Assembly (NCBI GenBank): GCA_963664115.2
Contig: CAXWPJ010000009.1
Span: 544,001-608,000 of the forward strand
Reading direction: 5' to 3'
Length of the DNA: 64,000 bases
Source: Terriglobia bacterium
GTDB lineage: Bacteria > Acidobacteriota > Terriglobia > 20CM-2-55-15
Under the pieces are notes generated by a model. That model was given only the letters and a program-made list of their open reading frames with translations, was not told the DNA's origin and made no database searches. Of the stretch, positions 19,696 through 44,960 are shown piece by piece. Positions within the stretch are counted from its first letter, which is position 1. Each line of letters starts with the position of its first letter. A program made the position numbers and the translations under genes.

Positions 19696-19877
19696 TTGTA
19701 TCCTAGTCTCCTTTAGAAGAAATTTTTGCTCACTGTGTAGTTAACAAATCAGAAAGTTTCTGGTTCAAGACTTCGGTTGCGGTCAAACGTTTTTCACGCC
19801 GGACGGCCAACCGGTCATCCCCGATTGTTAAACCTCTCGTAAAAAGCTCCACCCCAAAACGCGGGCTAACCGTCGAT

Positions 19878-19914
19878 AAGCTAACATTAGTGCAATAACG
19901 TGTCAACACTAATG
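19878..19914 (-). promoter_or_regulatory. sigma70 promoter TTGACA-N17-TAGCTT (extended -10) overlapped by an 8-bp inverted repeat
   Basis: -35 at 19901-19906, -10 at 19878-19883; CATTAGTG-N14-CACTAATG at 19885-19914. Confidence 0.65.
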
Positions 19915-22739: not shown

Positions 22740-22759
22740 GGAGATCCTCCTGCTAAGTC

Positions 22760-22785
22760 AAGACGCATCCTCAGCGAAAAAAGAC
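22760..22785 (-). promoter_or_regulatory. putative ECF promoter GTCTTTTT-N11-GCGTCTT upstream of gspH
   Basis: Same motif and spacing as at 39591-39616 and 44833-44858. Confidence 0.7.
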
Positions 22786-22889
22786 GAATTTCAGGGAAGC
22801 GTTTGGGTGCTGAGGCGTTCAAAGCTCGTCCAGCCCGCCAGAAGCGGTACCGGCGGCATCTGACGCCTCCGTTCTACATTTATCTCTTT

Positions 22890-23285
22890 TTATCTTCGGA
22901 TGCGATTAAGCTGCAAGGCAGATTCCGCACGTTCGGCGATGCCACACCCCTCTTGTTCGGGAACGATACGGGACGTCACACCGAGGATTCGCTGCGGATC
23001 CGCGAGGACGATTCGCCATTCGGTATCGAATCGGCACTCCCGCCCGTCCCCGAGCAGGGCGACAAAGTAACCACTCCCTTCGTAGCTGTTGAGTTCAGTC
23101 CACGAAAGATCGACTTCGTATTCTACGAACTGCGCGTGATCGGCGCCGAGACTGACATGAATACCCGTGTCTGTGCGTACAAGCCGGTAGTGTGTGTCCT
23201 TGTCGACGACTTCCCAAAGGCCGGAAGGATTGAAAGTCTGCTGAGTGAATCCAAGGCTTAGAAGTAGTAGCAACGCTTTCATCAT
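22890..23285 (-). CDS. small secreted beta-rich hypothetical protein
   Basis: Short signal peptide, FNPSGLW start and two Cys; TTGACG-N18-TACTAT promoter ends 7 nt before the ATG. Confidence 0.7.
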   Translation of the reverse strand: MMKALLLLLSLGFTQQTFNPSGLWEVVDKDTHYRLVRTDTGIHVSLGADHAQFVEYEVDLSWTELNSYEGSGYFVALLGDGRECRFDTEWRIVLADPQRILGVTSRIVPEQEGCGIAERAESALQLNRIRR

Positions 23286-23419
23286 GTTTCGAATAGTACG
23301 AACAGAGGGCTGAACCCGTCAAGAGGCTTCCGCCACCCGGTATTCAAGCTGGCCTCCTGAACTTTTGAATCGAGGCGTTGACCGCCCAGAAAGAGTTCAA
23401 ATAGACTTGGCCCTGACCG

Positions 23420-24571
23420 ATGAAAAATTCTGACCTCGCCCTCGCCCTCATAGTCTTAGCAATGACGAGTGCTCTCGTCGACACCGCCTACGCGCAAGAC
23501 GCCGCTCCTGCCATAGCGGCGAACGGTTCTCAAGTCACCACACATATAACTCAAATTGTTGACCTTTCATTAACTGTCGAGATCGAGGCGGGAAGCAGTG
23601 TTGGCGAAAATGGCGACTGGTGGCTTGTCGCGGAAACACCCTCCGGCTGGTATAGCTACGACATCCATGACCGGGCATGGAAGCCGGGCTTTTTTGTGAG
23701 CTATCAGGGTCCGTTGATCGATCTGCCTTCTTTTGGGGTGTCGTCTCTGACAGGTCTACCCATCGGGACGTATACGTTCTATTTTGGCGTCGATCTTCTC
23801 ATGAACGGCAGCTTGGATACAGGACGCTTGTTCTACCGCAGTGTGGCGGTCCATGTCGACGATATCTGGCAACCCGCACCGGGCGCCCACTGGCAGTGGC
23901 AGCTGAGCGGCACGATCGACACCTCGTTTGTGACCCAGATGTACGACATTGACCTCTTTGAAGTCGCGCCAGGGGTGATTGACCAGCTCCACGCCGATGG
24001 ACGCGTGGTGATCTGCTATTTCAGCGCCGGCAGTTGGGAAGACTGGCGGCCTGATGCGGCCACGTTTCCCGCCGCCGTACGGGGGGAGCCTCTCGAAGAC
24101 TTTCCTGACGAGACTTGGCTGGACATTCGCCAGCTCGACGGCCTGGGCCCCATCATGAGGGCACGTCTAGATCTGGCTGTGGAGAAGGGCTGCGATGGCG
24201 TGGAACCGGATAACGTGGACGGCTATGTGAACGAGACCGGCTTTGGGCTCACCGCCCAGGATCAGCTCAACTACAACCTCTGGTTGAGCGTCGAAGCACA
24301 CGCCCGGGGGCTGTCTGTTGGCCTGAAAAACGACCTGGACCAGGTCGCTGACCTCGTCCCGTTCTTCGACTGGGCCTTGAACGAACAGTGTTTTCAGTTC
24401 AACGAGTGCGCGTCGTTGCTCCCGTTCGTTGAGGCTGGCAAGGCGGTGTTCGGAGTCGAGTACGAGGGGAACCCAGAGACGTTCTGCCCCGAGGCCAATG
24501 TCCTAGGCTATTCCTGGCTCCAAAAACGTCTGGAGCTGGATGCCTGGAGGTTCGACTGCAGCGACAACTGA
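23420..24571 (+). CDS. endo-alpha-1,4-polygalactosaminidase (GH114) with extra N-terminal domain
   Basis: WQWQL, ICYFSAGSWEDWRPD, GCDGVEPDNVD, GLKNDLDQ and NEQC motifs; signal peptide. Confidence 0.93.
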   Translation: MKNSDLALALIVLAMTSALVDTAYAQDAAPAIAANGSQVTTHITQIVDLSLTVEIEAGSSVGENGDWWLVAETPSGWYSYDIHDRAWKPGFFVSYQGPLIDLPSFGVSSLTGLPIGTYTFYFGVDLLMNGSLDTGRLFYRSVAVHVDDIWQPAPGAHWQWQLSGTIDTSFVTQMYDIDLFEVAPGVIDQLHADGRVVICYFSAGSWEDWRPDAATFPAAVRGEPLEDFPDETWLDIRQLDGLGPIMRARLDLAVEKGCDGVEPDNVDGYVNETGFGLTAQDQLNYNLWLSVEAHARGLSVGLKNDLDQVADLVPFFDWALNEQCFQFNECASLLPFVEAGKAVFGVEYEGNPETFCPEANVLGYSWLQKRLELDAWRFDCSDN

Positions 24572-24651
24572 GGGATCGTCGCTACCATCACTACACGAGC
24601 ATCAAGCAACGGCATAGCGAAAGCCCTCGACATTGATCCTGACATCGATCC

Positions 24652-25914
24652 TCACATCTTTGATTCCGCAGTGAGACGAGAATCGGCCTCTCGAATCAAG
24701 CGATACGCTCTTTCGTATGCGTAAGCCTCCTCCTCGATCGTAGGTATCGCGGCGCCGTTCATGCCGTCACGGAGGGAATCCAGAACGGTCGGATCGTCCA
24801 CAGCCGCTCGCATCAAATCCCTCAGTTGACTCGAATCCCCCATTCTAAAAAGAAATCCGTTCACTCCATCTTCGAGCTTTTCCCCAATCCCACCTACATC
24901 TGCCGCCATGACGGGGACTTGACACGCCAAAGCCTCAGCCAGAGTGAACGGGCAGTTTTCGTACCACAAAGACGGGATAACCACCACGTCAACATTACTA
25001 AGAATCCCAGCTACCTGGTCTTCACCGAATACTCCGCGAAACTCAATTCTCTTGTCTCCGGCGGCCATGGCCATGAGGCTCTCGATATAGGTAGGATCTG
25101 GACCGGAACCGTAAATCTTAAGCGACGCGCTTTCTGCCCTTAAGCCCTGAAACGCCTCTATCAGGATGTGAACACCCTTATGCGGGTTGAGAGATCCCGC
25201 ATAGCAGAAGGTAAGCCCGCGATCGATACCGTTTCGCTGACCGTTCATCTTCAGTTCCTCATACTTGAGTCCATGAGGGATGACCCTGACGTCCAGGTTT
25301 TCAAACTCCCTTCGGAAAAGTTCGGCCAGAAACCGGGAGGGAGACACCACAAGCCCCGCATTCGACAAGATCTGTTCGGTCCTCTCCAGTCGTCGAGCAA
25401 TATGATCCACGGGAAGCTCACTACAGGAACGCGCGCATCGCTCACCTTTCTCCGGTCCTTCACACAAACTATTCTCTGAAGTAATGAGATTGACCTTGGG
25501 GCAGAGCAGAAAATAGTCCGTCAGGGTAACGACATAAGGGATCTGGAGGGTCAAGAGGGCCGAGACAAATTCCGCCTGCCTCATGCAATGGACGATGTGT
25601 GCAACATCGGGCTTTTCCCGCTTGATCAGCTCGCGGGCAAGCCCTCGGAGCGGATCCGGGTCGATCACATGACCGAGATCAGCGGGGGCGTTCTCGTGTC
25701 TGAATGCCAGAACGGGTATCCCTTTGTAAATAAATTCCTTATATAAAACATTCCCGATCTTTCGATCGTAGGAGGAAGCCTCGTAAAAGCTGTAGGTGAA
25801 GACCTTCACCGTGTGCCCGCACTTCTGCATCATGGTGGCCAGGTGCAGGACGACTTTTTCGGTGCCGGTGTAGTGTTCAGGATAGAATTGATGTACGAGA
25901 TAGACGATCTTCAC
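24652..25914 (-). CDS. glycosyltransferase family 4
   Basis: GTEK, TLTDYFLLCP, HKG and PSLWYENCPFTLAEA motifs. Confidence 0.92.
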   Translation of the reverse strand: MKIVYLVHQFYPEHYTGTEKVVLHLATMMQKCGHTVKVFTYSFYEASSYDRKIGNVLYKEFIYKGIPVLAFRHENAPADLGHVIDPDPLRGLARELIKREKPDVAHIVHCMRQAEFVSALLTLQIPYVVTLTDYFLLCPKVNLITSENSLCEGPEKGERCARSCSELPVDHIARRLERTEQILSNAGLVVSPSRFLAELFRREFENLDVRVIPHGLKYEELKMNGQRNGIDRGLTFCYAGSLNPHKGVHILIEAFQGLRAESASLKIYGSGPDPTYIESLMAMAAGDKRIEFRGVFGEDQVAGILSNVDVVVIPSLWYENCPFTLAEALACQVPVMAADVGGIGEKLEDGVNGFLFRMGDSSQLRDLMRAAVDDPTVLDSLRDGMNGAAIPTIEEEAYAYERAYRLIREADSRLTAESKM

Positions 25915-25916
25915 TC

Positions 25917-28900
25917 TTAGACACCCTGGATCAGCTCGCTGTTCATTGCTTCGAGTTTCGCTCGCTCATCGCCTTCCACCTGCAAAAAGCAGTGAGCCAG
26001 TTGAGCCCCACATTGATAAGCATAGAGCTTGTAGAGGGACGAACTGAAATCGTCACGAATATGCGCATCCACCCTTTCGTAGGTCTCGTGCATGTAGGCC
26101 AGCATCATCTGGGTAAAGCTCAGCACAGCGTCAATAAGTTTCCCATCGTGAGCGCCATCCTTGTGCTCTCCAGAGTAGCTCCCATTCGCGACACGGTCGA
26201 GAAACGAAGCGAACTCGGCATCGACAATGCTGGATTCATCGGGTCGGAAGTGACGGGAAGATCCGTTCTTTAGCGCTTGTTCGAAACTCTCAGTAACACG
26301 GACGGAAAGTTCCTCGACCGAGCAGGGGTAAACGATTCTTTCGAGCGTTTCTTGGACGACAGATTGCACAGCCCCAAGAGTAAACAGAATGTCGGGGAAA
26401 AGCACATCCGGGCTTAGGGCAAGCAATGGGATGTCGGGAAACATCCGCGGCAGGAACAGATTATCCACATAACCCCTCCTCAGGTAGTAATAGGGGGCGC
26501 GATTGTGGGCATGGATCACCCGTGTTGAGCTCAAAAAAGCAATCTTGTGGTCATCCCGGATCAGCCTTAACCCCAAATCGAGATCTTCCGCATAATCGGT
26601 CTCGTACCGATACCTTAAAAAATCATCCCGTCTTATCAGACAGGCCAGATCAGACAATTGTGCGTTCTTCCGCAGGCTCGTGTGGTCTTGCTCGGCCGGT
26701 CTGCTCATGATTCGGTCCCGGCCGTCAACTTCTAGAAACTTATAGTGATTCCACGAAATGGCCCTGTAGAAAAGGTCCGCGTCTGAGGTAGGAAACTCGG
26801 CGCAGGATACGGCAATAACACTGTTGGATTTCATGGCACTGAAGAGTTCATGAAGCCACGAATCCGAAGAGGGGAGCGCATCCTGTACGGTGAACAAAAG
26901 ATACTCTCCCGAGCTGTGATCGGCCCCCAGGTTCCTGGCGTAAGCATGGGAAAATTCTTCTGGGAGAATTTCTATAATCTTTGCGCCAATACCCTTTGCT
27001 ACCTCCAGGGTCCCATCCGTGCTTCCAGAATCGACGACGACGATCTCCAGGTTCCGGAAGCCTTTCTGATTTCTGATCGCCGAAACGATGTGTCTAAAAC
27101 GCTCGCCCGCGTTTTTTGTCGGAATCACCACGGAAACGCTGACTTCTTCGAGTGGAATTGGCCTCTCTCCCACCGCAATATTTTTCAGAGTCGGGTGAGG
27201 CCGTTTTGCCACAAGCTCGGGAGCAAGTGCGGTCGGCTCCAGGCGGCTCCGGGATTGGGCACCCTCTAGGTGATCGGGCCGAGCGGACACCGACAACTGG
27301 CGTCGCAAGTTTATTCGGCGAGTTTTCAACACTGTTACGATCCAGTCGTATAGTGCTCTCCGTCTGGCGCCCGGAGCTAGAAAGCGATCGCGTGCATTCC
27401 AGTATCGGCTGAGCACACGCCAGCCGAAGCTGCCATACACTTGCCTAAGTTCATCCTGATAACCCTTATAACGGCCCAGTTCTTCTTCTTGCGCCGAAAG
27501 CCGCCGTTCTCCTACATCGAGAGCGTCCTGCAGTTGGTCAATTCGATTATTCTGCTCCCGTAACGACTGCTCCTGAGCTTGTGTCTTTGCCTGGTACCCG
27601 CCTAATTCCTGGTTGAGGGCCGCGTGAGCATCCCAGAGTTGTTGGCGCTGGGCCGCAATGAGATCCCGTTCGTGTGTAATGAGATCCCGTTCGTGTGTGA
27701 GGGCGCGATGAGCCCCCAGCAGGTCCTGGTATCGCTGGTGATCGGGAAAACGATCGACCAAAGCAAGGTAGTCCGCAGACTCCGGCCAAGATACAGTGAT
27801 CTTGCAGACTCCACCGTCGCTCAATCGCTGGAGTCTCTTTTTAGGAACAGGCAACTCAAACTGCGGATCGTCACCCGCAAGCAAGGCTGTGATTCCTTCG
27901 ATCCCGTCGTCCCGATCGGCGAATACGATTTGCTGCCCGTGCCCGGCTGCTTCCAAAGTGCTCGCCTTCCCATCCCAAACCCAGATTGCACCTCCCTGCG
28001 GATCATAGAGGGCGATCGAATAGAGACGCATCAGGCCCGGCCGATCGGAAGGGTCCAGGCGCAACGAGCTTAGAGCTCCGCTCCGCGCCGGAATCTCGAT
28101 CTCAATTTCTTGTCTTTCGACCCCCATACCCGCAAACACTACCGAGCTCCTGGACTCCTCATATTCAGAATGCTCTTGTCGCCAAAACAGCCCCACACTG
28201 TAGCGAAGTTCCGGAGTGGATGGGCCTGTTCGTATCTCCAGGTCCGTCAGTCCTACTGTTGCCGAATGCCCCTCAGCGGTGGGAACGACCTCCACTACGA
28301 ATTGATACGTCAAGCTTTCAGGCAAAGCCCGGAGATAGCTCCGTATCCTTGGTGGAAAAGCCTGAAGATGGCGCAAGCGATACTCGGAGTTGCCGAGATC
28401 CATGACGCGGTCAAGTTTGATGGGAGTCAGGCCGTGGGACTCCAAGAGCTCCACCAAACTCTTGCGAGTAAAAAAACGTAAATGAGTCTCGTCCAAAAGC
28501 CCCTCCGGCCGATATTGAAACTCTCCGGCCAGGAGGTTCGCAACCAATCCCATATGGGCAACGTTAGGAATCGATAAGAGGATGGAACCGTCTTCGGCGA
28601 GAAGTGAGGGCAGCTGATCGAGGACATCACCTGGGACTCGAAGGTGCTCGAGGATGTCAGCGCAAACGATGGTGTCGTAAAGACCCTCAGTAAAGAGGGT
28701 GGCAAGCTTTACGAGTTCGAGATCCGCGACCTGAAGCTTCCGATAATGGGGCGCCGCTCGTTTTGCCCGCTCGCTGGATAACTCAATCCCATCGACAATA
28801 CAACTTTTTTCTGAGGATAAGTACTGGCCTAAAGCTCCGTTTCCCGTGCCGAGATCCAATACTTTACTGCCGGAAGCGACCCATCGGGCGATTTTCGCTA

Positions 28901-28961
28901 AAGAGTCATCCCCCGTTGGATCCAGGAGCCGATCGTAGCGATGTTCGACGGTGTTAGCCAT
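25917..28961 (-). CDS. multidomain SAM methyltransferase / coiled-coil / GT2 glycosyltransferase
   Basis: VLDLGTGNG, DILEHL and GLLDETHLRFFT; LRLDP beta domain; coiled coil; SFGWR; VSVVIPTKN, VVDSGSTD and TVQDA. Confidence 0.9.
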   Translation of the reverse strand: MANTVEHRYDRLLDPTGDDSLAKIARWVASGSKVLDLGTGNGALGQYLSSEKSCIVDGIELSSERAKRAAPHYRKLQVADLELVKLATLFTEGLYDTIVCADILEHLRVPGDVLDQLPSLLAEDGSILLSIPNVAHMGLVANLLAGEFQYRPEGLLDETHLRFFTRKSLVELLESHGLTPIKLDRVMDLGNSEYRLRHLQAFPPRIRSYLRALPESLTYQFVVEVVPTAEGHSATVGLTDLEIRTGPSTPELRYSVGLFWRQEHSEYEESRSSVVFAGMGVERQEIEIEIPARSGALSSLRLDPSDRPGLMRLYSIALYDPQGGAIWVWDGKASTLEAAGHGQQIVFADRDDGIEGITALLAGDDPQFELPVPKKRLQRLSDGGVCKITVSWPESADYLALVDRFPDHQRYQDLLGAHRALTHERDLITHERDLIAAQRQQLWDAHAALNQELGGYQAKTQAQEQSLREQNNRIDQLQDALDVGERRLSAQEEELGRYKGYQDELRQVYGSFGWRVLSRYWNARDRFLAPGARRRALYDWIVTVLKTRRINLRRQLSVSARPDHLEGAQSRSRLEPTALAPELVAKRPHPTLKNIAVGERPIPLEEVSVSVVIPTKNAGERFRHIVSAIRNQKGFRNLEIVVVDSGSTDGTLEVAKGIGAKIIEILPEEFSHAYARNLGADHSSGEYLLFTVQDALPSSDSWLHELFSAMKSNSVIAVSCAEFPTSDADLFYRAISWNHYKFLEVDGRDRIMSRPAEQDHTSLRKNAQLSDLACLIRRDDFLRYRYETDYAEDLDLGLRLIRDDHKIAFLSSTRVIHAHNRAPYYYLRRGYVDNLFLPRMFPDIPLLALSPDVLFPDILFTLGAVQSVVQETLERIVYPCSVEELSVRVTESFEQALKNGSSRHFRPDESSIVDAEFASFLDRVANGSYSGEHKDGAHDGKLIDAVLSFTQMMLAYMHETYERVDAHIRDDFSSSLYKLYAYQCGAQLAHCFLQVEGDERAKLEAMNSELIQGV
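27657..27698. repeat. 21-bp tandem duplication (THERDLI x2) in the coiled coil
   Basis: AATGAGATCCCGTTCGTGTGT twice, exact. Confidence 0.9.
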
Positions 28962-29079
28962 GTTCAACTTCCACAATCATCCACGCGCGGGATCACTGGA
29001 TGCTTAAGTTTTGGGGTATAGCTCTGACTGCTCATAGATAGCTTAGTTCGACTCAAGGTCAGCAGTCCGGGGCGGAAGT

Positions 29080-31083: not shown

Positions 31084-31101
31084 CCATCACAGGCCGACAC
31101 G

Positions 31102-31746: not shown

Positions 31747-31774
31747 TGTTTCTCCTGCTCTAAGTAATCCGCAA

Positions 31775-32692: not shown

Positions 32693-32696
32693 TTTC

Positions 32697-33947: not shown

Positions 33948-33964
33948 TGGATTCCTCCGCGCCA

Positions 33965-34744: not shown

Positions 34745-34878
34745 GGAATGAGGGATGTTGACTCCGCGTGATCGCCGGCAAGCGGCAGGAGCACATTGTA
34801 GAAAGCCGGCGCGTCAGATTACGGATCCCCGTATTCGAGGCCTGGCAGTCCGTGGCGGCTCACATCCGACACAGGAAA

Positions 34879-36903
34879 TCACCCGATGATTTCTTGGATT
34901 TCTTTCAGCTTCTGTTTCAGTTCTTCGGTTGCCTGATCGGCCTCCTCGGTGTCTCTAATGACATGAGGGGTGATCAGAATGATCAGCTCAGTCCGAGTTG
35001 TGCTGTTACTGGTACTTCCAAACAAAGCGCCCAATACAGGAATCCTTCCGATCAATGGCACTCGACTCTCGACCTGTTGACGGCTCTCACGGATAAAGCC
35101 GCCGAGGGCGATCGTCTGACCATCCTGGACAACAATGGTTGACTCCACCGACGATTTACCGATTACGGGAGCCACGATGCCCGAGGTTGTGTTCGCACTC
35201 GCTTGACTGACTTCCTGGGATATCGAGAGCGTAACCCGTCCGCTTTCTGTGATCTGTGGAAGAACACTCATAATCACGCCGGTCGTACGGAATTGGATCG
35301 TTTGAGCAAATGCGAAAATGTCTGTGCTGCCAGCGTTAGGATTAACCGCCGAGGTCGTAGGCACCGGAATATCTGCTCCGACTTCAAAAGTGGCCACCAT
35401 GTTGTCGCTGACAAGAACCGAGGGCGCTGAAATAGTACGCACGCGGGAACGATTCTCGGAAGCATTTAGAAATGCCAAAAGTTCCCTCGACCGGCCTACA
35501 AATGCGAAGGTCTGGGCACCGAGCAAACCGCCATTTGTAAACGACGCAGTGGTCTGTGGGTTGGCCAGCGTGCCTCGATTCTGAAGCGTTGCCGACAGGC
35601 CAAAAGAGAGCGAGTCGTCCAGAACGACTTCGTATATTTGCGCGTCGATCAACACCTGTCGGGCCAGAACATCCAACTGACTGAGCGTCCGTTCGATCTC
35701 GGCATATTCCTGAGGAGTCGCCTGGATTATCAGAGAATTCGTAATGGGATCGGCCACGATTCGAATGTTCTGCTCTAAAAATGTCGAATCGAAAGACGGC
35801 ACGGGTTGGACCGTGCCGTCAGGTAAACCAATCTGTCCCGGGCCTGTTCCCGGCAGAGCTGCGGGGATCGGTGCGGCGACCGGATTGCGGCCGTAGAGTT
35901 GGGCCAGAACTCTCTGGAGGTCTGCGGCCTTGGAGTTTCTGACTCTATAGACGAAAACCTGAACGCCACCGCTTTGCAGCGGCTGATCCAATCGCAGCAA
36001 CCATTCTTCCACTTCCGGAAAAACTGAGGCATTGGGCGTTACGACGAGAATAGAGTTGAGACGTTCAATCGGAACGAAGCGAATGGCCGTCGTTTCGCCC
36101 GAGAGGGCATAGCCAGCAAAAATCGATCTCAAATCCGGAATGAGATCGCTGGGAAAGGCGTTCTCCACAGCGAACATGCGGACACGTTCGCCTTCGAACG
36201 CGCCCGCATCAAAGATATCCACGATATCCAGCAGCTTTCTAAGGTTGCCCCGGCGTTCGCTGACCAGCAAGATGTTGCCCGAATCGTAAACGACGATGTT
36301 TCCGGCGTCGCTGAGGTATGGCGTCAACAGCTGCGACATCTCGGTCGCCGCCACGTACCGCATACGGACAACCTGGATGACGATTCGATCATCGGGCGCC
36401 ACCTGCTGGAACACATCGTTCTGGAGAGGCACCGGCTCCCGAACAGCCGTATTGGCAGGAACAATCTGGTAGAAGTTCCCCGTCTGGATCATCGTGGCCC
36501 CGTTGATCTTCAGGATCGTTTCCAGAAGCGGCAGGAGATCCGATGTTCGCAGCGTATCGGAAGTGCTGATGTTCACCGTTCCCTGGACGGCGGGGTCGAT
36601 CACGTAGTTCAATGCCAGCGCGTCGCCAATGATACGGATGACCTGGTAGATGTCGGCATTGTCGAGAATGAGTGAAATCGGCGCGTCAGAATCGTCGGCC
36701 TCTTCTTGCTCGACAGCAGCCGCCGCTGGAACCGCGTCTGCCTGGACTTCTGTCGGAGCTTCTATCTGAACCGGAACCGGCCCAAACGGTGTCTGAATGA
36801 CGGCCCCATCCTGCTCTGGGTCGACGGGCACTTCCTGGGCTATGATCGGCGCCGCACAGAGGAAGCCAAACCACAATATTGCTTTGGATATTCGAATGTT
36901 CAT
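34879..36903 (-). CDS. gspD: type II secretion secretin GspD
   Basis: N0-N3 domains; QVLIDAQIYEV, VQDGQTIALGG, VPLIGRIP.LG.LF and TELIILITPHV motifs. Confidence 0.96.
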   Translation of the reverse strand: MNIRISKAILWFGFLCAAPIIAQEVPVDPEQDGAVIQTPFGPVPVQIEAPTEVQADAVPAAAAVEQEEADDSDAPISLILDNADIYQVIRIIGDALALNYVIDPAVQGTVNISTSDTLRTSDLLPLLETILKINGATMIQTGNFYQIVPANTAVREPVPLQNDVFQQVAPDDRIVIQVVRMRYVAATEMSQLLTPYLSDAGNIVVYDSGNILLVSERRGNLRKLLDIVDIFDAGAFEGERVRMFAVENAFPSDLIPDLRSIFAGYALSGETTAIRFVPIERLNSILVVTPNASVFPEVEEWLLRLDQPLQSGGVQVFVYRVRNSKAADLQRVLAQLYGRNPVAAPIPAALPGTGPGQIGLPDGTVQPVPSFDSTFLEQNIRIVADPITNSLIIQATPQEYAEIERTLSQLDVLARQVLIDAQIYEVVLDDSLSFGLSATLQNRGTLANPQTTASFTNGGLLGAQTFAFVGRSRELLAFLNASENRSRVRTISAPSVLVSDNMVATFEVGADIPVPTTSAVNPNAGSTDIFAFAQTIQFRTTGVIMSVLPQITESGRVTLSISQEVSQASANTTSGIVAPVIGKSSVESTIVVQDGQTIALGGFIRESRQQVESRVPLIGRIPVLGALFGSTSNSTTRTELIILITPHVIRDTEEADQATEELKQKLKEIQEIIG

Positions 36904-37640
36904 CAATCTTGTACCTGAAACCTTCCCCATGGGGTCACGACGATTCGCGTACCGGGTGCTGGCTCGTCGTTCGGACCCAGCCGCACAGGCGCTGTCGTTA
37001 TTCGAGGCACAGCCGTAGCTGGCGCCACCGTGGCTGAGGCCGTCGGGGCCAATACCGCCGATGTCTCAGCCTCGACAGGTTCTGAAGCCACGACGACGGG
37101 TTCATTCGAGCGTGCTCTATTGGTCGCTCTCACCGTTTCCCGGGGGATGGACGCGGAAGGATCGTTCATGATGAGGGTTTGCTGGACCGCATTGGCTTCG
37201 ACCACAACCGATTTGCCCTGAATCTCGACCAATCGCCATCCATCAACACTCTCACCCACACGGATAGGCTGGTAGGACCGGGCATTACCGGCGCCGGCCG
37301 GCGCCAGCATCGCCATCAAATCGCCACCGAGCGACATCGTCCCTACCAAGAGCGGCTTGTCACCCACTACAACGGGGCCCGCGTCGGGAAGATACGCGAC
37401 GTCGGACCGGTCGAAGCTGAAAGGATTCATCAACGCCACCTCATCCCAACCATTGGATGGAACTTCGGAAAGCGGCTCCGCCAGAGAGTCCAAGTCAAAC
37501 GCTTCGGCCTCAGGCTGAACGGTTGCAACCGTGTGCGTCATCTCAAACGTCTGCCAATCACGGTAGGCTGTCCAGGCCCCACCGGCCAGCAGCAACGCGA
37601 GAGTCAGGTTCAACAAGAGAAATCGTTGCCAGATTTTCAT
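36903..37640 (-). CDS. GspC-like T2SS component (no PDZ domain)
   Basis: TM helix, NPF, LVGT and GESVDGW.L..I (HR domain); TGATG overlap with gspD. Confidence 0.7.
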   Translation of the reverse strand: MKIWQRFLLLNLTLALLLAGGAWTAYRDWQTFEMTHTVATVQPEAEAFDLDSLAEPLSEVPSNGWDEVALMNPFSFDRSDVAYLPDAGPVVVGDKPLLVGTMSLGGDLMAMLAPAGAGNARSYQPIRVGESVDGWRLVEIQGKSVVVEANAVQQTLIMNDPSASIPRETVRATNRARSNEPVVVASEPVEAETSAVLAPTASATVAPATAVPRITTAPVRLGPNDEPAPGTRIVVTPWGRFQVQD

Positions 37641-38224
37641 AATGGATTGAGCACCAGGGCTCCTACGCTCAAGCTAACGCGGAGCGTCTTCTCTAGCTCT
37701 CCTTGGTCTGGAACTTCATGAACGACCTCGAGAGGACGAATTTCAATCGATCCAACGGTGAGGACCTTGGGCGCTACACGCAGGTCGGTGAGAAACTGGA
37801 CAAGCTGGTCCGGGGTCGCGTCGAACGATAAAGTCATCGTGGTTTCCCCAAAGTAATCGTCAAGTTGCCGCATCCCAACGATATTTCTCTGTTCGACTCC
37901 GATACCGGCCCCTTGGCTTGCTTCCTCGACAAGCGCTTGCAACTGGACTGAAGCCAGGCCTTCGCTTTCGGCTTGTATCCAGCGGCCGTCCAGTTCGGCT
38001 ACACGGTCGCGCGCCTCTGAGATAAGCTCGGTGTCGCGGGTCTGCCGTGACAACGCACGCCGGTATCTGCGGAGTTGATCTTCCTTGTCCACAGCCGCCT
38101 CGCTCGCTAAGGCCAAGCGATCATAGGCAGGGAAGACCAGCTCCGACATCGTCAGATACACTGCCAGTGCAAGGGTCAGGCCTATCAGGGCCCGCCGGTC
38201 GCGGTCTCGAATTTGAATCTTCAC
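37637..38224 (-). CDS. gspM: GspM/PilO-like inner-membrane component
   Basis: RDRRAL followed by a TM helix, coiled coil and QLVQFL..L ferredoxin-like domain. Confidence 0.8.
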   Translation of the reverse strand: MKIQIRDRDRRALIGLTLALAVYLTMSELVFPAYDRLALASEAAVDKEDQLRRYRRALSRQTRDTELISEARDRVAELDGRWIQAESEGLASVQLQALVEEASQGAGIGVEQRNIVGMRQLDDYFGETTMTLSFDATPDQLVQFLTDLRVAPKVLTVGSIEIRPLEVVHEVPDQGELEKTLRVSLSVGALVLNPL

Positions 38225-39549
38225 CGGGACGCCTCTACCGAAGCCCTTATGACGAAGCGATCCTTACCTGAACCGTCCCGCACTAAGGGAGAAATGAACT
38301 CCACATCACCTAACTGGACGCTGTCTTCCAGCAACTGTTGTAACTCAGCCGGGCTCTCGGAAAATCCTGAAATCGTTACCGTATTCCCTTCGTAACTGTA
38401 GCTGGACAGAAACGTTGCTGCAGGCAGGGACCGAGCCAATTCGGCGAGTGCCTCCAGGTTAGTGTCCCGGCCGGCCAGGTGGGTTATCGCAACTTCATAT
38501 TGCTCGTTGAGTTGGTTTAACTCGTTTTCCATCGCACTCACTTCGCCGACCTCGGCAGCCAGTCTCTCAATCTCTGCATCCAAACGAGCTGCGTAAGCAA
38601 CGTTCTGATACCCATCCTGAAACACATACACGAATCCCAAGCCCAGCAAAAGGACAAGCAGCGCTCCCGTGGGTATCCATTGCAGCCAATTCTGGCGGTA
38701 TCTTAGCTCTTCAGGTACAAGGTTCGTCCTAAACGCAGTGGATTTCAATCCGACAAGCGCCGCAGCGAGCACACCAAAAACGCCGGGCCGTGGGGTGACC
38801 GTCGATTCGACGGGCAGACGAACAGGATCCCATGGAACTGAATCCGACGACGCCCCATGGACGAGGACACGGACATCTTCGGGGGAATCCAAACGGCCAA
38901 GGGCCACGATCCTCTGGATCGATTCCTGAGCCAAGCGAGTGGTTTCTTCCCCGCTGTTTCGAACGGCAACAAAGCGGGGACCCTCTACAAGCAAACCCTC
39001 TACAGCGCCGGGTTCGCATCCAAGCACTATCGTGGGACTCGCTGGCCAGAGCGTCGTGGCGGCATGGGCCCAGGCCAGAGGCGCCAGACACGCGCCTGAA
39101 AGCCGCAATCCCGCATTACTGAACAACTCCAACCACGGGTCTAGATTTGCTCGTGGGACAATCGTCACCGACACCGTTACAGAGCGGGCACCTTTGGGAC
39201 CTCGCTCGAAGCCGTAGTCCCAATAGATCTCATCGGAGGACCAGGGACACCAAGATTCCAGCTGCAAGCCAATAGCCTCTTTCAATTCCTCTATTCCTTC
39301 GACGGGGAATTCAACCTGACGCACCATGCCCAGGTCATGCGAAAGAGACAGGAAGATGTGTGAGGTCGGGATTCGGTGACGGCGCAACAGTGAAACGAGA
39401 GCTTCGCGCTTCTCTTCGCTGGAAAGTTCGCCAAAACCCTCTACATACCATTGATTTACAAGATGGATCGTGTTCCAGACACGCCGGACTACCGCAACCC
39501 GCAGGTCGCTTCCCGCCAGTTCGAATCCGGCGCTGGTCTTCAGAATCAT
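38221..39549 (-). CDS. gspL: GspL-like (PilM-like plus PilN) component
   Basis: Cytoplasmic actin-like region, NLVP motif before the TM helix, then a PilN-like domain. Confidence 0.8.
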   Translation of the reverse strand: MILKTSAGFELAGSDLRVAVVRRVWNTIHLVNQWYVEGFGELSSEEKREALVSLLRRHRIPTSHIFLSLSHDLGMVRQVEFPVEGIEELKEAIGLQLESWCPWSSDEIYWDYGFERGPKGARSVTVSVTIVPRANLDPWLELFSNAGLRLSGACLAPLAWAHAATTLWPASPTIVLGCEPGAVEGLLVEGPRFVAVRNSGEETTRLAQESIQRIVALGRLDSPEDVRVLVHGASSDSVPWDPVRLPVESTVTPRPGVFGVLAAALVGLKSTAFRTNLVPEELRYRQNWLQWIPTGALLVLLLGLGFVYVFQDGYQNVAYAARLDAEIERLAAEVGEVSAMENELNQLNEQYEVAITHLAGRDTNLEALAELARSLPAATFLSSYSYEGNTVTISGFSESPAELQQLLEDSVQLGDVEFISPLVRDGSGKDRFVIRASVEASR

Positions 39550-39590
39550 ATCGGTACTTTCCTTCGAGCGAACGCGCCGCTTCCACTCTA

Positions 39591-39616
39591 AAGACGCGCC
39601 CCCATAGGAAAAAGAC
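39591..39616 (-). promoter_or_regulatory. putative ECF promoter GTCTTTTT-N11-GCGTCTT upstream of gspL
   Basis: Same motif and spacing as the other two copies; overlaps the gspG stop codon. Confidence 0.7.
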
Positions 39617-40077
39617 TACTGCCAGTTCACAATATCGGCGTTCTCGTCCTCGCCGCCTTCCCCACCGTCAGCGCCCAAAGAAAGTATGTCGAAATCTCCG
39701 TGCTCTCCGGGGTACCTATAAAGATACGGACGGGCCCACGGATCGAGCGGCACATCTCTTCGAAGATACGGCCCGTCCCAATTTCCGAGCCCACCCGGGT
39801 TCAAACGCAAGACACTCAGGCCCTCCGACGCAGTCGGGTACCGCCCAACATCCAGACGGAAGAGATCCAACACACTCTCAAACTCTGCAATCTGGACCCG
39901 GGCCGTGGTCTGCCGGGCTTGATCGACTCTGCTGAACAACCGCGCTCCGACCAAGGTTGCAAACAGCGAAATGATAACCATCACAACGATCAACTCGATC
40001 AGCGTAATCCCTCGCTCAAAAGAGTTTGGAGAGGTGGGGTTTGGGGGCCGACGAGTTCGAGGCCGTCGATTCGCCAT
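39616..40077 (-). CDS. gspG: type II secretion major pseudopilin GspG
   Basis: GITLIELIVV, FRLDVGRYP, W.GPYL, DPW and SLGADG motifs. Confidence 0.96.
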   Translation of the reverse strand: MANRRPRTRRPPNPTSPNSFERGITLIELIVVMVIISLFATLVGARLFSRVDQARQTTARVQIAEFESVLDLFRLDVGRYPTASEGLSVLRLNPGGLGNWDGPYLRRDVPLDPWARPYLYRYPGEHGDFDILSLGADGGEGGEDENADIVNWQ

Positions 40078-40151
40078 TTCACAAGCGTCGTAATATTCGA
40101 AGTCCTCCGTCTCCGATCTCCATCTCCAATTCCACATCGATTCGCTCCTGG

Positions 40152-41369
40152 TTAGAATGCTATGTCGTTGATGCTGAATATCGCTGTCAACATTGACAGT
40201 ACGACACCACCGATCAACACGCCCATGACAAGTATTATGGCGGGTTCAAAAACCGAAGTTAGCATTTTCACGGCCGACCGCACGTCTTTCTCATAAACTT
40301 CGGCAACCTGGATCAGCATCGTGTCCAGTCTGCCCGTCTCTTCGCCCACAGCGACCAGATGCACCGCCAAGCCGGGGAACAAGCCGGCATCGGTCATGGG
40401 CCCGGCGACACCCTCCCCACGTTTGGCGCCATCCGCGATGCGTGAGATCGCGTCAGCCAGAACTCTATTATTCGCTATCCCCTCGACGATGCGCACGGCC
40501 GCGATCAGCGGCACTCCGCTCCGGATCAAAGTTCCGAGCGTGCCTGCAAACCGCGCGACCTCCAATTTGAGAATCGTCGAACCTAACAATGGGATGCGCA
40601 ATTGAACTCGATCCCAGGTCCGCGCCCCCTCAGGCGACCGCAGAAAAGCGCGACCCGATATCACCGCCAGTCCGAGGGCGGCCAACACCAGCCACCAATA
40701 GGACCTTGAAAAATTGGCTATCGCAATCAGCACCAACGTTGAGGGCGGAATCTGGGCGCCTACGTCTTCGAAGATGCCCGCAAAACGAGGTATGACAAAG
40801 TAGAAAAGGATCGCAACCGAGCCCAGGCCGACTGTCGCCAAAAGGGCCGGATAGACCAGAGAAGCCGACACGTATGATCGCAGTTCGTCGGCAGAGCGCT
40901 CGAACTCGGTCAGTCTTTCGAGGATCACGTCGAGAATGCCGCCTGCTTCGCCCGCCCGAACCATATTCACATAAAGTTTCGAGAACTGCTTCGGGTGAGC
41001 CGAGAGCCCGTCGGCAAGCGAGCCACCGCCCTTGATTTGCTTCAAGACATCTTCTATGACCTTCCTCAGTGCCGGCTTAGCGGCCAGTTCGGCCGTGATC
41101 TCCAGACTCTTATCCAGCGGAAGCCCAGCTCGGACCAGCGTCGACAACTCTTCGGTGAAAAGCAGCATGTCCTTTCGGGTGATACGTCTAAGCTGCAGGC
41201 GATCGCGCGCCGGTCGGAGCGCTTTGTCACCGACGTCTGCCTCCACCGAAAGAGCAATCAGCCCCATTTCTTGGACGCTTGCGGCCGCCATCTGCGTATT
41301 GCTGGCTTCAACTCGGCCTGCTACCCGCTTGCCCTCCCGACTGACAGCTCTGTAGATAAATATCCCCAC
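40152..41369 (-). CDS. gspF: type II secretion platform protein GspF
   Basis: AGLPL, AGEAGG, GEETGRL and FEP motifs. Confidence 0.96.
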   Translation of the reverse strand: MGIFIYRAVSREGKRVAGRVEASNTQMAAASVQEMGLIALSVEADVGDKALRPARDRLQLRRITRKDMLLFTEELSTLVRAGLPLDKSLEITAELAAKPALRKVIEDVLKQIKGGGSLADGLSAHPKQFSKLYVNMVRAGEAGGILDVILERLTEFERSADELRSYVSASLVYPALLATVGLGSVAILFYFVIPRFAGIFEDVGAQIPPSTLVLIAIANFSRSYWWLVLAALGLAVISGRAFLRSPEGARTWDRVQLRIPLLGSTILKLEVARFAGTLGTLIRSGVPLIAAVRIVEGIANNRVLADAISRIADGAKRGEGVAGPMTDAGLFPGLAVHLVAVGEETGRLDTMLIQVAEVYEKDVRSAVKMLTSVFEPAIILVMGVLIGGVVLSMLTAIFSINDIAF

Positions 41370-41379
41370 TTCGATCCTC

Positions 41380-43068
41380 TCAGACTTCCTGCGTCACTCG
41401 GAGCACTTCGTCCGGGGTTGTCACGCCCGCCAGAACCTTGTTCCAGCCGTCTTCCTTCAATGTGTGCATGCCTGATTTCACGGCACTCGCCCGAAGAACG
41501 TTGGCATCCGGATTGGTCGTAATGACGTCCCGCAATTCCCCACCGACATCGACAAGTTCAAAAATTCCCATCCGGCCTTCATAGCCTGTGTATCCGCAGC
41601 TTTCACATCCGGCACCCCGCTGGATCTCGATTTCGCCGGAGTCGAAAGAAAATCCGGAATCTGCCAAAGCATCTCGAGAAACTGACTCGCTCCTGCGGCA
41701 GTCCTTGCACACGACACGGACCAGGCGCTGAGCTAAAATTCCGATCAATGAGGACGCCAGCAGGTAGTCTTCAACCCCCATGTCGATCAAGCGCGTGATG
41801 GCACTCGGCGCGTCATTGGTATGGAGCGTACTGAAAACCAGATGTCCGGTCAGCGCCGCGCGAATGGCAATCTCCGCCGTCTCCAGATCACGAATCTCTC
41901 CGATCATGATGACGTCAGGGTCCTGCCGCACGATGTGTCGCAATCCCGCGGAAAAGGTCAGGCCAATCTGAGAGTTCACCTGAATCTGGTTGATTCCCTC
42001 CATCTGGTATTCCACTGGATCCTCGATCGTGATGATTTTGCGATCTGGAATGTTGATTCTCTTGAGCGCGCTGTAAAGCGTTGTCGTCTTACCACTACCG
42101 GTCGGACCGGTCACCAGCAAGATGCCGTGAGGCTTGGACGTCATCTCGCATATCTTCGCGTACAGATTTTCCGGAAATCCAATCCGGCGAAGATCGATCA
42201 AGTCCGTGTTCGACTTATCGAGAATCCGCATAACAACGCTTTCGCCGTACATCGTCGGCAGTGTCGACACGCGCAAGTCTATTTCCTTCCCCAGGACTTT
42301 TAGTTTGATACGACCGTCCTGAGGCAATCGGCGCTCTGCAATGTTGAGCTTTGCCATGAGCTTGATGCGCGAAGTGATCGCACCACGCAACTGATTGGGC
42401 GGCGGATCCACGCTATGCAGCACTCCATCGACGCGATAGCGGAGTTGGAGTTCTTTCTCGAAGGGTTCAATGTGGATATCGCTGGCTCGCGATTCCACGG
42501 CTCGAGAGATGATAAGGTTGACCATCCGGATAACAGGGACTTCCGAGGCCAAGTCTTTAAGCTGCTCGACATCGGCCTCGGCCAGAGAATCGCCCAGGGT
42601 TTCGATGAGACGTTCCTCTTCCGGGTCTCCACGATGGAGCCTGTCTAGCTGATCCGTTATCTCACTTTCAGATGACAGATAGATCTTGAGATTGTGACCC
42701 GTGCGCGACTGAATCGCGGCGCAGGTCTCCGAATCGAAGGGATCCGTCATCACAATGGATAACACGCCGGATTCCAGGTGAACGGGCACAACGGAAGACG
42801 CTCGAAGGAAGCGATAGGGCAAGTGGTCTATTTCGATCGGAACCGCTGGGTAATCTCCAGCGAACAAGTCGACACCGCTCTGCTCACTCAATGTGGATAG
42901 AACGTCCCTTTCCGACACAAAGCCAAGATCAACCAATATCTTCCCGATACGATCGCTGCTTCGCGTCTGGAGGGACAGCGCACTGGAAAGGTCTTCTTCT
43001 GAAATCAAGCCCCGATCTCGCAGCAAGTCTCCGAAACGCCGATGCTCCAAGGCAAGTAGTGCTTTCAA
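41380..43068 (-). CDS. gspE: type II secretion ATPase GspE
   Basis: ASDIHIEP, GPTGSGKTTTLY, RQDPD, TGHLVFSTLHTN and a Cys4 motif. Confidence 0.97.
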   Translation of the reverse strand: MKALLALEHRRFGDLLRDRGLISEEDLSSALSLQTRSSDRIGKILVDLGFVSERDVLSTLSEQSGVDLFAGDYPAVPIEIDHLPYRFLRASSVVPVHLESGVLSIVMTDPFDSETCAAIQSRTGHNLKIYLSSESEITDQLDRLHRGDPEEERLIETLGDSLAEADVEQLKDLASEVPVIRMVNLIISRAVESRASDIHIEPFEKELQLRYRVDGVLHSVDPPPNQLRGAITSRIKLMAKLNIAERRLPQDGRIKLKVLGKEIDLRVSTLPTMYGESVVMRILDKSNTDLIDLRRIGFPENLYAKICEMTSKPHGILLVTGPTGSGKTTTLYSALKRINIPDRKIITIEDPVEYQMEGINQIQVNSQIGLTFSAGLRHIVRQDPDVIMIGEIRDLETAEIAIRAALTGHLVFSTLHTNDAPSAITRLIDMGVEDYLLASSLIGILAQRLVRVVCKDCRRSESVSRDALADSGFSFDSGEIEIQRGAGCESCGYTGYEGRMGIFELVDVGGELRDVITTNPDANVLRASAVKSGMHTLKEDGWNKVLAGVTTPDEVLRVTQEV

Positions 43069-43071
43069 GGC

Positions 43072-43602
43072 TCAGTATTCCCGCATCACAACGCGATCAG
43101 CGAATGCCGTCTTAGAAATCGCAGCCGATTGCAGATCCGCAGCGTCTTGTTTCGTTACCGACGCGACGATTTGAGTGGGCAGATCCGGCAAGTCCGCTGG
43201 ATTCGTGTTCAGCATATAGATGACAACGGCAACCCTTTCATCCGAAGGCATGCTTCTGATCCCGGGCACGTACTCTCCGAGCAAGTCCACTGTGGCTTCC
43301 TTGAGCGCTAGACGGCGCTCATTGCTGGAGCGGCGAATTTCTTCCGGTGACCGCATCCCTGTGAAAGGGTTCCGGGGTAGCGCTAACGCCACCTCGATAG
43401 TCACAACCAGACCGTAGCCCTCCAGATACGTTGATTTCGCCCTCTGCAACATTGGTCCGGGTACGATGCCCGCAACGCGTTCGTCAATCGCAGCCGTGAT
43501 AGCGGCTCTCTCCTCGACTGATGGGCCGACTTGGCCAAGCAGCGCGGCGGGAAGGAATGCGGCAAAGAAGAAAATCGTTAAGAACAAGTGGGAACGGAAC
43601 AT
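43072..43602 (-). CDS. secreted hypothetical protein in the ECF-T2SS operon
   Basis: Signal peptide; YLEGYGLV motif; tightly packed between the anti-sigma gene and gspE. Confidence 0.75.
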   Translation of the reverse strand: MFRSHLFLTIFFFAAFLPAALLGQVGPSVEERAAITAAIDERVAGIVPGPMLQRAKSTYLEGYGLVVTIEVALALPRNPFTGMRSPEEIRRSSNERRLALKEATVDLLGEYVPGIRSMPSDERVAVVIYMLNTNPADLPDLPTQIVASVTKQDAADLQSAAISKTAFADRVVMREY

Positions 43603-43603
43603 G

Positions 43604-44260
43604 CTACTCCCTCCCGGTCTGGGCGGCGAGAAGTTGAATTGAAGACGCGTTTTCGTAGGCGACTCTCCGCGCCGAACGTTGCAATTCAGAAAAATACTGA
43701 AGTTCCGCACGCAACCTTTGGATCTCTTGATTACCTGCGACCTCAAGCTTCAAAACGGCCTGATCGATTTCCGCCCGAAGCCATCCTTCTTCTTCCTCGC
43801 GGATGCGGTCCACGATCTGAGCGTAATCCAGGCTTGCGTAATCGATGGTTGGAGATACAGAAACCTCGGCAAGAACAGCTTGGAGTTCAGCCGTCTGTGT
43901 GGGCTCGCTCACAGGACCCAGACCAATCACAAAACCGGAATCAAGCCGTTCGAAACGCAGGGGGCCACCCAGCACGACTGCCAGTACGAGCGCCACGGCA
44001 ATGGCGGAAGGAATTGCCCATCGTAATGGAGCCCAGTTCGTTTTCGCTCGGGTTTCCGATGGAAGGAAAACCATTCGCCGTGGAACGTCCACATCGGGCA
44101 ACTGCTCAAGCGAGTGTTGAACCTTTCGAAATCCGGCCACGCGTCCCTGGCACTCCAAACACTGAGCCACATGTTGACGGGCCGCTTCCATTTCCGGCCC
44201 CGTCAAATCTTCAAACACAAACTCCGCAAGCTGGTCTTCTAAATGCGACATTTGAATCAC
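43604..44260 (-). CDS. zinc-finger (ZAS) anti-sigma factor
   Basis: HVAQCLEC (HxxxCxxC) followed by a TM helix; start overlaps the sigma stop. Confidence 0.88.
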   Translation of the reverse strand: MIQMSHLEDQLAEFVFEDLTGPEMEAARQHVAQCLECQGRVAGFRKVQHSLEQLPDVDVPRRMVFLPSETRAKTNWAPLRWAIPSAIAVALVLAVVLGGPLRFERLDSGFVIGLGPVSEPTQTAELQAVLAEVSVSPTIDYASLDYAQIVDRIREEEEGWLRAEIDQAVLKLEVAGNQEIQRLRAELQYFSELQRSARRVAYENASSIQLLAAQTGRE

Positions 44261-44811
44261 CTATTTGCTTTCCCTCGATCGATCACTTGTTCACCTAAAA
44301 CTGATTTCAGCTTGTCGAAACTCATGTAGAGCCTCGACTTCACGGTCGAAACCGGCGCATCCTGAACAGCCGCTATTTCATCAAACCTGAGGCCCTGGTA
44401 GACCTTCAGGACCACGACTTCTTTCTGATCGTCAGGCAGCTGGGAGAGGGCCTTCTCCACAGCCAGCCGATTCTCGATCGGCATGCGGGATGCCCCCACA
44501 TTCGGGTCCAACTCAACAAAGGTCTTCCCCTGGTCCTTCCGGAATCTCGAATAACACACGTTGTGGGCGATCCGGTACAGCCAGGACGAAAAACGGTCCC
44601 GGTCCTTCAGGTTTCCGAGTTCGCGATAGGCCTTCAGAAAACTCTCCTGACATAAGTCCAGAGCGTCGTCCCGATTGCCAACCATCCGATAGATATAGTT
44701 GTAGATCGGCTTCTCCCACTGCCACACTAGGAGGTTGAAAGCGTTGGTATCGCCGTCGAGGACTCGATCGATGATCCGCGAATCGTCGGCACTCTCTAAA
44801 TTCAAAGCCAA
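44257..44811 (-). CDS. ECF RNA polymerase sigma factor
   Basis: DALDLCQESFLKAY, FSSWLYRIA.N and EIA..STVKSRL motifs. Confidence 0.95.
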   Translation of the reverse strand: MALNLESADDSRIIDRVLDGDTNAFNLLVWQWEKPIYNYIYRMVGNRDDALDLCQESFLKAYRELGNLKDRDRFSSWLYRIAHNVCYSRFRKDQGKTFVELDPNVGASRMPIENRLAVEKALSQLPDDQKEVVVLKVYQGLRFDEIAAVQDAPVSTVKSRLYMSFDKLKSVLGEQVIDRGKANR

Positions 44812-44832
44812 ACTCGGGCCTCACACTCTAAA

Positions 44833-44858
44833 AAGACGCGTTACGGTGTTAAAAAGTC
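44833..44858 (-). promoter_or_regulatory. putative autoregulatory ECF promoter GACTTTTT-N11-GCGTCTT
   Basis: Directly upstream of the sigma gene; motif shared with the gspL and gspH upstream regions. Confidence 0.7.
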
Positions 44859-44960
44859 GAATCCATATCCGGGTTCGTCGCGGACACCCGTCAATTAGAG
44901 ACAACGGCGGAAAGCATGTCGTTTGAAATTATAGGCTTAGAAGGTCGATTGCGGTCCCGG

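Follow-up and report, generated by a model that had tools for sequence, protein, structure and literature searches.

A predicted local ECF/ZAS promoter regulon over a type II secretion cluster in a Terriglobia bacterium

Do the genes of one type II secretion system (T2SS), laid out in separate blocks, answer to a switch of their own? The question is raised by a 64,000-nt stretch of Terriglobia bacterium DNA (Acidobacteriota; contig CAXWPJ010000009.1, positions 544,001 to 608,000; hereafter the window, meaning this whole stretch), in which the same bipartite motif stands before the gene of a sigma factor of the extracytoplasmic function (ECF) type, before gspL and before gspH. An initial annotation of the window proposed that this sigma factor and its zinc-binding anti-sigma (ZAS) partner control the T2SS genes through these motifs. 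Our analysis favors the view that the three motifs are promoters of the adjacent sigma factor, forming a local, autoregulated ECF/ZAS regulon over one T2SS, with a probability of roughly 0.85.

Three copies of a bipartite motif in the gsp cluster

The initial annotation had described three minus-strand strings with one fixed spacer, and both the window sequence and a genome search confirmed each of them in place. With at most one mismatch allowed, the pattern GWCTTTTT-N11-GCGTCT matches the window at exactly three positions (44834-44858, 39592-39616, and 22761-22785) vs. 0.02 matches expected, and three matches were reached in none of 100 shuffles. A scan of the whole genome (4,892,581 bases), proposed earlier as a check, found the exact pattern at these three places only; with a spacer of 10-12 nt allowed, four genome matches were obtained. 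The genome was also scored with a weight matrix of 57 distinct sites from upstream of orthologous sigma genes, the window's own sites being left out. Site 1 (before the sigma gene) scored 31.3 bits, site 3 (before gspH) 30.9 bits, and site 2 (before gspL) 28.9 bits, and the next genomic match reached 20.1 bits. At 25 bits or more, three matches were found with the true spacer and none with five other spacers, and 20 column-shuffled matrices gave a mean of 0.05 matches and a maximum of one. In the cluster loci only the 16-nt spacer scored (35 and 55 matches vs. 0-2 for the others), counts that arise partly by construction, auto-promoters having served to train the matrix. For this 4.89-Mb genome a wider regulon was rejected, the next eight matrix matches all overlapping long open frames. 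A loose-pattern scan of 301 phylum genomes returned 0-5 matches per genome; these counts lie near the reversed-pattern control, so the scan speaks only against a large regulon. A genome marked as unpublished was set aside there. The TAGAGTG tail noted in the initial annotation is present in two copies, but it does not belong to the motif, since the columns 3′ of the -10 element differ among orthologs.

The motif was numbered as in RpoE, following Table S1 of PMC7776599. The consensus reads Y-35 C-34 G-33 W-32 C-31, then T-30 to T-27, the spacer, and G-14 C-13 G-12 T-11 C-10 T-9. The distance from C-31 to G-12 is 18 nt, the same spacing as in RpoE promoters. Among 58 distinct sites the -35 core is GAC in 33, GTC in 24, and the canonical AAC in a single case. 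AAC takes the place of GWC in five orthologs of the wider set, and this fixes the register of the motif. The atypical -35 element without AAC that had been postulated thus held up as GAC or GTC in the AAC register, followed by a T-tract beside the -35, which is a described ECF promoter element (PMC5758882).

On the minus strand the cluster opens with site 1 (44834..44860; -35 TCGAC, T5 tract, -10 GCGTCT), the predicted ECF auto-promoter, conserved before orthologs, whose predicted start (~44824-44825) lies about 15 nt ahead of the sigma start codon. Behind it follow the genes for the ECF sigma factor (44257..44811), a predicted membrane ZAS anti-sigma (43604..44251), a predicted exported protein named g3 (43072..43602), and gspE, gspF, and gspG (39616..43068). 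Site 2 (39592..39618; predicted start ~39583-39584) comes next, in a gap of 66 bp where the G of its -35 also closes the stop codon (TAG) of gspG, and precedes gspL, gspM, a gspC/N-like gene, and gspD (34879..39549). Because all intergenic gaps from the sigma gene to gspD are at most 77 bp and no terminator-like site was found at site 2, we regard it as a predicted internal promoter. After gspD come a cluster of wzm/wzt and glycosyltransferase genes, a GH114 gene on the opposite strand, and a small ORF, and then site 3 (22761..22787; predicted start ~22751-22754), the predicted promoter of a displaced minor-pseudopilin block, gspH, gspI, gspJ, and gspK (20194..22739), followed by an S-layer-like gene. 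When the three motifs were scanned for terminator-like sites, none was detected, and Rfam gave no match in 16000-46000 of the window; on these grounds a terminator or RNA reading of the motifs was rejected.

The sigma protein (184 aa) matches Sigma70_r2 and Sigma70_r4_2 above cut-off and shows no region 3 match, so that with regions 2 and 4 only it belongs to the ECF (group 4) sigma factors; its best solved relatives are AlgU, RpoE, and SigW. Compared with the solved Escherichia coli RpoE it carries the changes G168S, R171K, F175Y, R176M, R178F, and N84S. The anti-sigma has an H-x3-C-x2-C motif, one hydrophobic segment (residues 80-98), and a helical outer part. H27, C31, and C34 are invariant in 53 aligned orthologs, which were chosen for their Cys/His motif, and the full motif occurs in 59 of 64 loci; zf-HC2 matched 36 of the 53 members but not the window's own copy. 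By its motif and its gene position (+1) the protein is a putative ZAS anti-sigma, with zinc binding and sigma inhibition as predicted properties. The third gene of the cassette, g3, is conserved: throughout the phylum it follows the anti-sigma gene of orthologous loci, whether or not a T2SS is linked. It falls into no known family, Pfam giving no match among 39 members. Its confident AlphaFold model (pLDDT 91.4) is alpha/beta, Foldseek returned no match at E<=0.001, and the best structural likeness by VIA, a weak one to the C-domain of the cAM373 precursor (Z 7.9; rmsd of 3.4 over 103 residues), lies in the range of common arrangements.

The gsp genes were assigned by family profiles. Family cut-offs were passed by the ECF sigma, GspE (TIGR02533), GspG (TIGR01710), and GspD (TIGR02517). 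GspF scored 386 vs. a cut-off of 424, and GspL, GspM, GspH, GspI, GspJ, and GspK, which lie under the equivalog cut-offs, were named by weaker matches and gene order; the Pfam models T2SSF, T2SSJ, T2SSK, and T2SSM_b matched above cut-off. A prepilin peptidase is available in the form of two Peptidase_A24 genes at other places of the genome, neither with a matrix match of 14 bits or more. GspE (41380-43068, minus strand) bears an N-terminal MshEN c-di-GMP motif (62 vs. an NCBIfam cut-off of 38 bits), which suggests a second, c-di-GMP layer of control.

Conservation of the motif across Acidobacteriota

At E<=1e-30 the sigma factor turned up in 28 of 41 relatives, and a search of 301 phylum genomes at E<=1e-34 gave it in 69. 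Inspection of the regions upstream of orthologous sigma genes, which the initial annotation had named as a check, showed the motif in 62 of 65 close loci, so that a bipartite motif of fixed spacer precedes the orthologs as expected of an autoregulatory promoter. In the wider set a pattern search found the site before 98 of 104 distinct sigma proteins, or 97 of 103 once an artefact row with a missing upstream region (L059) was removed; a weak site (L225) was accepted. Three of the sigma genes missed by the pattern carry GTCCTTTT variants, which matrix scoring recovered, and three others have no site. Remoter ECF factors from the same search have different upstream motifs. The sigma-ZAS-g3 trio forms a phylum-wide core. 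Behind it the T2SS was seen both in the families classed with the window and in one further family (f55), but 13 more loci that were inspected lack it there. The predicted circuit is also present in culturable relatives, e.g., Paludibaculum fermentans (L063). Two further sites were noted: one locus (L198, G038:C11) holds a second sigma/ZAS paralog pair with a 28-bit site of its own, and a lytic-transglycosylase-like gene (L201, G025:C20:16538) has a 25-bit site immediately before it in a genome where the sigma factor gave no match at E<=1e-30.

The bases of the motif vary together with the sigma factor. Positions 168, 171, 175, 176, and 178 of the protein are those that the published code ties to bases -33, -32/-31, and -35 (PMC7776599); motif-bearing orthologs have S168, K171, and Y175 in common, and residue 176 is nearly always other than Arg. 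In auto-promoters, Ser or Thr at residue 84 goes with G-12 in 74 of 78 cases and Ala or Met with A-12 in 17 of 18, a correlation that comprises only two independent pairs or lineages. Among internal sense sites, located with a pattern blind to positions -13 and -12, the lineages with Ser84 have CG in 22 of 24 and 24 of 25, and the Ala84 lineage has G-12 in none of 10. The mutagenesis data in Dataset S3 of PMC7776599 give 0.46 for CG, 0.13 for AG, and 0.12 for CA with Ser84, 0.30 for CG and 0.28 for CA with Ala84, and 0.98 for C-31 with Lys171. The Lys171/C-31 pair here agrees with this code, the Ser84/CG and Ala84/CA pairs agree in direction, and the Ser172/G-34 pair disagrees. In one subclade (L014-L022) the auto-promoter has GAGTC and the internal site GCGTC. 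A change in sigma specificity was rejected as the cause, because the internal sites keep GCGTC and residue 84 is Ser; the variant suggests a tuned-down autoregulatory loop. For Ser84 the published table ranks AG second among the dinucleotides.

The internal sites were then compared between operon arrangements. Intact operons (E-F-G-H-I-J-K-L-M-C-D) of the window's family have one site between gspG and gspH (13 copies). In split operons the site stands before gspL in nine of nine cases and before gspH in seven of eight, the lone split-operon gspH without it lying directly behind gspD; each of the six inverted gspHIJK blocks among the split genomes has its site. In the intact operons the gspH start codon follows C-10 by 9 nt in nine of the 13 copies and by 11 nt in four. 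The codon thus coincides with the predicted +1 or adjoins it, an indirect signature of leaderless mRNAs.

Bryobacterales have a second site within gspK, about 500 nt ahead of its end. In the 28 rows compared, which are related and hence not independent, the codon at this site encodes Ser or Thr in 22, Pro in five (without a site), and is gapped in one. All 22 Ser/Thr rows use TCT or ACT vs. background frequencies of 4.5% and 10.1%, and in ten other conserved Ser/Thr columns of gspK such codons occur in only 0-5 of 21-27 rows. This codon constraint within gspK therefore indicates selection on the DNA. Another family (f3) has sites before gspI and gspJ (5 of 8 loci) or before gspD (G048). Predicted internal promoters have arisen at about five positions within one operon family, one of them inside coding sequence. 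No site follows gspG in the 12 outgroup loci, and no internal sense site was found in f55.

A single origin of the split architecture was rejected by the gspE tree, which does not accept the seven split rows as one clade (p-AU 0.0275), although a FastTree gspK tree groups the split rows. Outgroups keep the intact order, and we claim no further order of rearrangement events. Extra, intact-type gsp cluster copies were seen on small contigs beside the split-type cluster in two genomes, G013 and G021 (L188 = G013:C2; L130-L134), and in one fully mapped copy the sigma match is frameshifted; such copies suggest mobility or duplication of the cluster.

Competing explanations and the proposed circuit

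The motif could also be read as a direct repeat (MG[AT]CT with a 21-bp period, i.e., two helical turns) bound by a dimeric regulator, e.g., a protein of the LytTR type, to which there is a family resemblance, and acting as an operator or activator site of another promoter. The two halves are alike at this period, positions -1 to +3 show near-identical base counts, and a sigma70-like TTAACA-16-TAGAGT overlaps site 1. Yet the halves differ (Y vs. G, W vs. an invariant T, and a T-tract in the first half only), sigma70-like matches occur at chance level (7 vs. 5.2 expected), and a residue of the sigma factor varies together with the second half. Moreover, since start codons sit at the predicted +1, there is no room for a downstream promoter. 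We consider a direct repeat of this kind very unlikely.

It is similarly improbable that only the auto-promoter matters and that the internal copies are weak or vestigial, gsp expression coming mainly from read-through or housekeeping promoters. Such a state would fit the lack of an internal site, at the thresholds used, in G030, G031, G038, G039, and the f55 family, the five Bryobacterales gspK rows without a site, and the score of only ~14 bits for some gspH sites. On the other side, the window's internal sites are near-consensus, no inverted gspHIJK block lacks its site, and the gspK codon constraint reflects selection on DNA.

Another ECF factor of the genome might read the sites, as at least seven further ECF-like matches exist in it and one of them (G000:C12:128418) combines S168, K171, and S172 with a non-Arg residue 176. 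The site, however, stays with the sigma gene of this cluster phylum-wide, even where no T2SS is linked, its -12 base shifts with residue 84 of this sigma factor, and no site lies upstream of the rival gene, all of which leaves little room for such a factor. Chance resemblance is practically negligible, being contradicted by the uniqueness in the genome and the spacer and matrix controls and refuted by ortholog conservation.

Several observations weigh against promoters read by the adjacent sigma factor. The genes of three orthologous proteins (L238, L239, L242) lack an upstream site, and several families hold the sigma factor without a linked T2SS. The training of the matrix on auto-promoters inflates part of the cluster-locus counts. 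The sign test for the residue-84 correlation is not significant, and Met84 is flat in the published mutagenesis (PMC7776599, Dataset S3). The code predicts G-34 for Ser172 (0.83), while the sites show C in 49 of 58 and A in nine of 58. The RNA runs (a search found one RNA data set, at a 0.05 share) consist of sparse contigs unable to show starts or levels; their short pieces lie on the sigma gene, g3, gspF/G, gspL, gspC, gspH, and the S-layer-like gene. Finally, read-through from upstream genes on the same strand could also feed sites 1 and 3, as the gaps before them showed no terminator-like site.

Control by the adjacent ECF/ZAS pair nevertheless remains the reading we prefer. The sites, their uniqueness, orientation, and conservation, the gspK codon constraint, and the co-variation with the sigma factor are direct observations, and the promoter assignment, which rests on comparative data, is supported in that it passed every comparative test but one residue-base prediction. 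As for the claim of the initial annotation that the pair governs all three T2SS transcription units, the sites, their conservation, and their tracking through rearrangements speak for such control; site 2, rather than opening a unit of its own, is better seen as an internal booster.

In the proposed circuit the sigma factor would transcribe its own operon from site 1 (sigma, anti-sigma, exported g3, and gspEFG), boost gspLMCD from within the operon at site 2, and drive the displaced gspHIJK block from site 3. Its region 4 would read C-31 and the preceding G/W, with the T-tract serving as the known -35-proximal element, and its region 2 would read C-13 G-12 T-11 C-10, transcription probably beginning ~9-10 nt past C-10. 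By analogy with the family, the membrane ZAS protein would keep the sigma factor inactive till an envelope signal frees it. After release, positive autoregulation would raise all three gsp blocks together, and the internal sites would secure expression of distal or displaced gsp genes. More speculatively, the exported g3 protein may act as a sensor or co-regulator.

Neighboring genes, known systems, and significance

The S-layer-like gene (~19695-18169, with its upstream region 18169..19906, minus strand) is a candidate substrate of the T2SS. It has no ECF site upstream. The sigma70 promoter that the initial annotation gave it comes down to a sigma70-like TTGACA-17-TAGCTT match before it at 19906-19878, under the reporting threshold of the scan, and one DNA run carries two changes in that hexamer. 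RNA contigs extend to 19842, which is compatible with a long leader but is no proof of one. The protein has a signal-peptide-like start, is acidic, and varies between runs; neither Pfam nor NCBIfam matched the two fragments scanned for an S-layer identity. The gene has two frame breaks in the assembly. One- or two-base differences at 19493 and 18926 occur in several DNA and RNA runs, and dense strain variation is confined to this gene; the breaks may therefore be artefacts of assembly or strain mixture, and the gene looks hypervariable. Beside it (16903-18024, minus strand) lies a gene for an unknown exported protein with homologs behind gspD in family f3 (L185, L266, L271, L260, L261), a candidate T2SS accessory. 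An ECF site precedes its homolog in G006 (two copies) and G016, beside S-layer-like genes, so that the regulon can reach this gene in relatives, though not here. The region 4878-16886 encodes several exported proteins of large size whose beta-rich domains are repeated (DUF5719-like, TIG, matrixin). They are candidate substrates of the T2SS, and in relatives their homologs lie close to gsp loci.

The gsp genes are flanked (24652-34744 and 44961-49301, minus strand) by genes for Wzm/Wzt, methyltransferases, glycosyltransferases, and RmlD, plausibly a cluster for surface-protein glycosylation that is possibly read through from gspD. The window further contains a second ECF sigma gene without this motif (792-1265, plus strand), a DDE_3 transposase present twice with identical domain scores (3815-4900 and 59644-60729, minus strand), and a fragment similar to GrdB, the glycine/sarcosine/betaine reductase selenoprotein B (50511-50963, plus strand), where selenocysteine read-through may occur.

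VreI of Pseudomonas aeruginosa is a FecI-like sigma factor. The sigmaVreI-VreR pair adjoins the hxc T2SS, whose genes rise once the anti-sigma is removed, and belongs to a cell-surface signaling system induced by phosphate starvation (PMC7035377). The present cluster likewise has an ECF/anti-sigma pair beside T2SS genes; unlike that system as described, the anti-sigma here is of the ZAS type, the sigma gene heads the gsp operon, and an auto-promoter and internal promoters are readable. RpoE controls expression of the eps T2SS in Vibrio cholerae (review PMC6598108, citing Zielke 2014), again an ECF-dependent T2SS, but RpoE is a global envelope-stress regulator, whereas three promoters in one cluster are predicted here. 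Promoters of Bacillus subtilis sigmaV/M/W/X combine AAC, a -35-proximal T-tract, and CGTC or CGTA, and one ECF promoter lies within murG (PMC5758882). The acidobacterial sites resemble them in the T4-T5 directly behind the -35 C, the CGTC -10 element, and the intragenic precedent, and differ in the GAC/GTC core and in a sigma factor without Arg176 and Arg178. Small regulons are common, three promoters or fewer being predicted for 47.8% of ECF factors (PMC7776599).

Among classified groups, T3SS-linked ECF32 is also dedicated to a nearby secretion cluster, but is described as not autoregulated and two-component-linked (PMC7826278), while autoregulation and ZAS control are predicted here. A single-pass zinc-finger anti-sigma at +1 is shared with ECF268, ECF206, and ECF277, and T-tract motifs with the mixed groups ECF225 and ECF272 (PMC7826278). 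The motifs described for the acidobacterial ZAS groups ECF268/206/277 and the mixed ECF25/225/272 are GGGAAC/GGTGT, 'not conserved', GGAAC/GTC, AAACTTTTT/CGACT, and TTTAAACCTTT/CG(A|T)CTAA. None of these six is described with G[AT]CTTTT/GCGTCT or a gsp context, a separation drawn from the descriptions available; membership in ECF268 was rejected, as these sites do not match GGGAAC/GGTGT. The motif and its context did not appear in the accessible group texts of PMC7826278, in PMC3174227, or in PMC12369372, and Datasets S1/S2 of PMC7776599 and Table S2 of the ECF Hub may hold the motif. Todor Dataset S6 names no group for these region 4 residues among the rows listed (30 of 35 Solibacter rows). 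We found no description in the literature of this motif or of an ECF-gsp linkage in Acidobacteriota; ECF control of a T2SS as such is already known, and what we did not find in print is this motif or ECF group.

To our knowledge, almost no regulation has been mapped in Acidobacteriota, and here a complete, testable circuit can be read from sequence, with a sigma factor and its anti-sigma, three promoters, and a single secretion machine. If the sigma factor reads the motif, the secretion machine would likely own a self-amplifying switch. The predicted promoter class, lacking AAC and nearly absent elsewhere in the genome, could serve as an orthogonal switch, and the published residue-base code finds in it a natural test, with agreement at residue 84 and disagreement at residue 172. 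A bolder and doubtful extension would be that an ECF group so far undescribed and spread throughout the acidobacterial phylum (sigma, membrane ZAS, and an exported protein outside all known families; G[AT]C-TTTT -35) captured a T2SS operon as a dedicated assembly controller. The exported protein and the anti-sigma would then report the state of the pseudopilus or surface layer, and selection for a boost of the distal gsp genes would repeatedly have made promoter copies at different places, inside gspK by residue recoding, at the stop codon of gspG, and ahead of gspH, gspI, gspJ, or gspD. If this were true, the family would offer a natural experiment on how promoters are born and how they co-evolve with their sigma factors.

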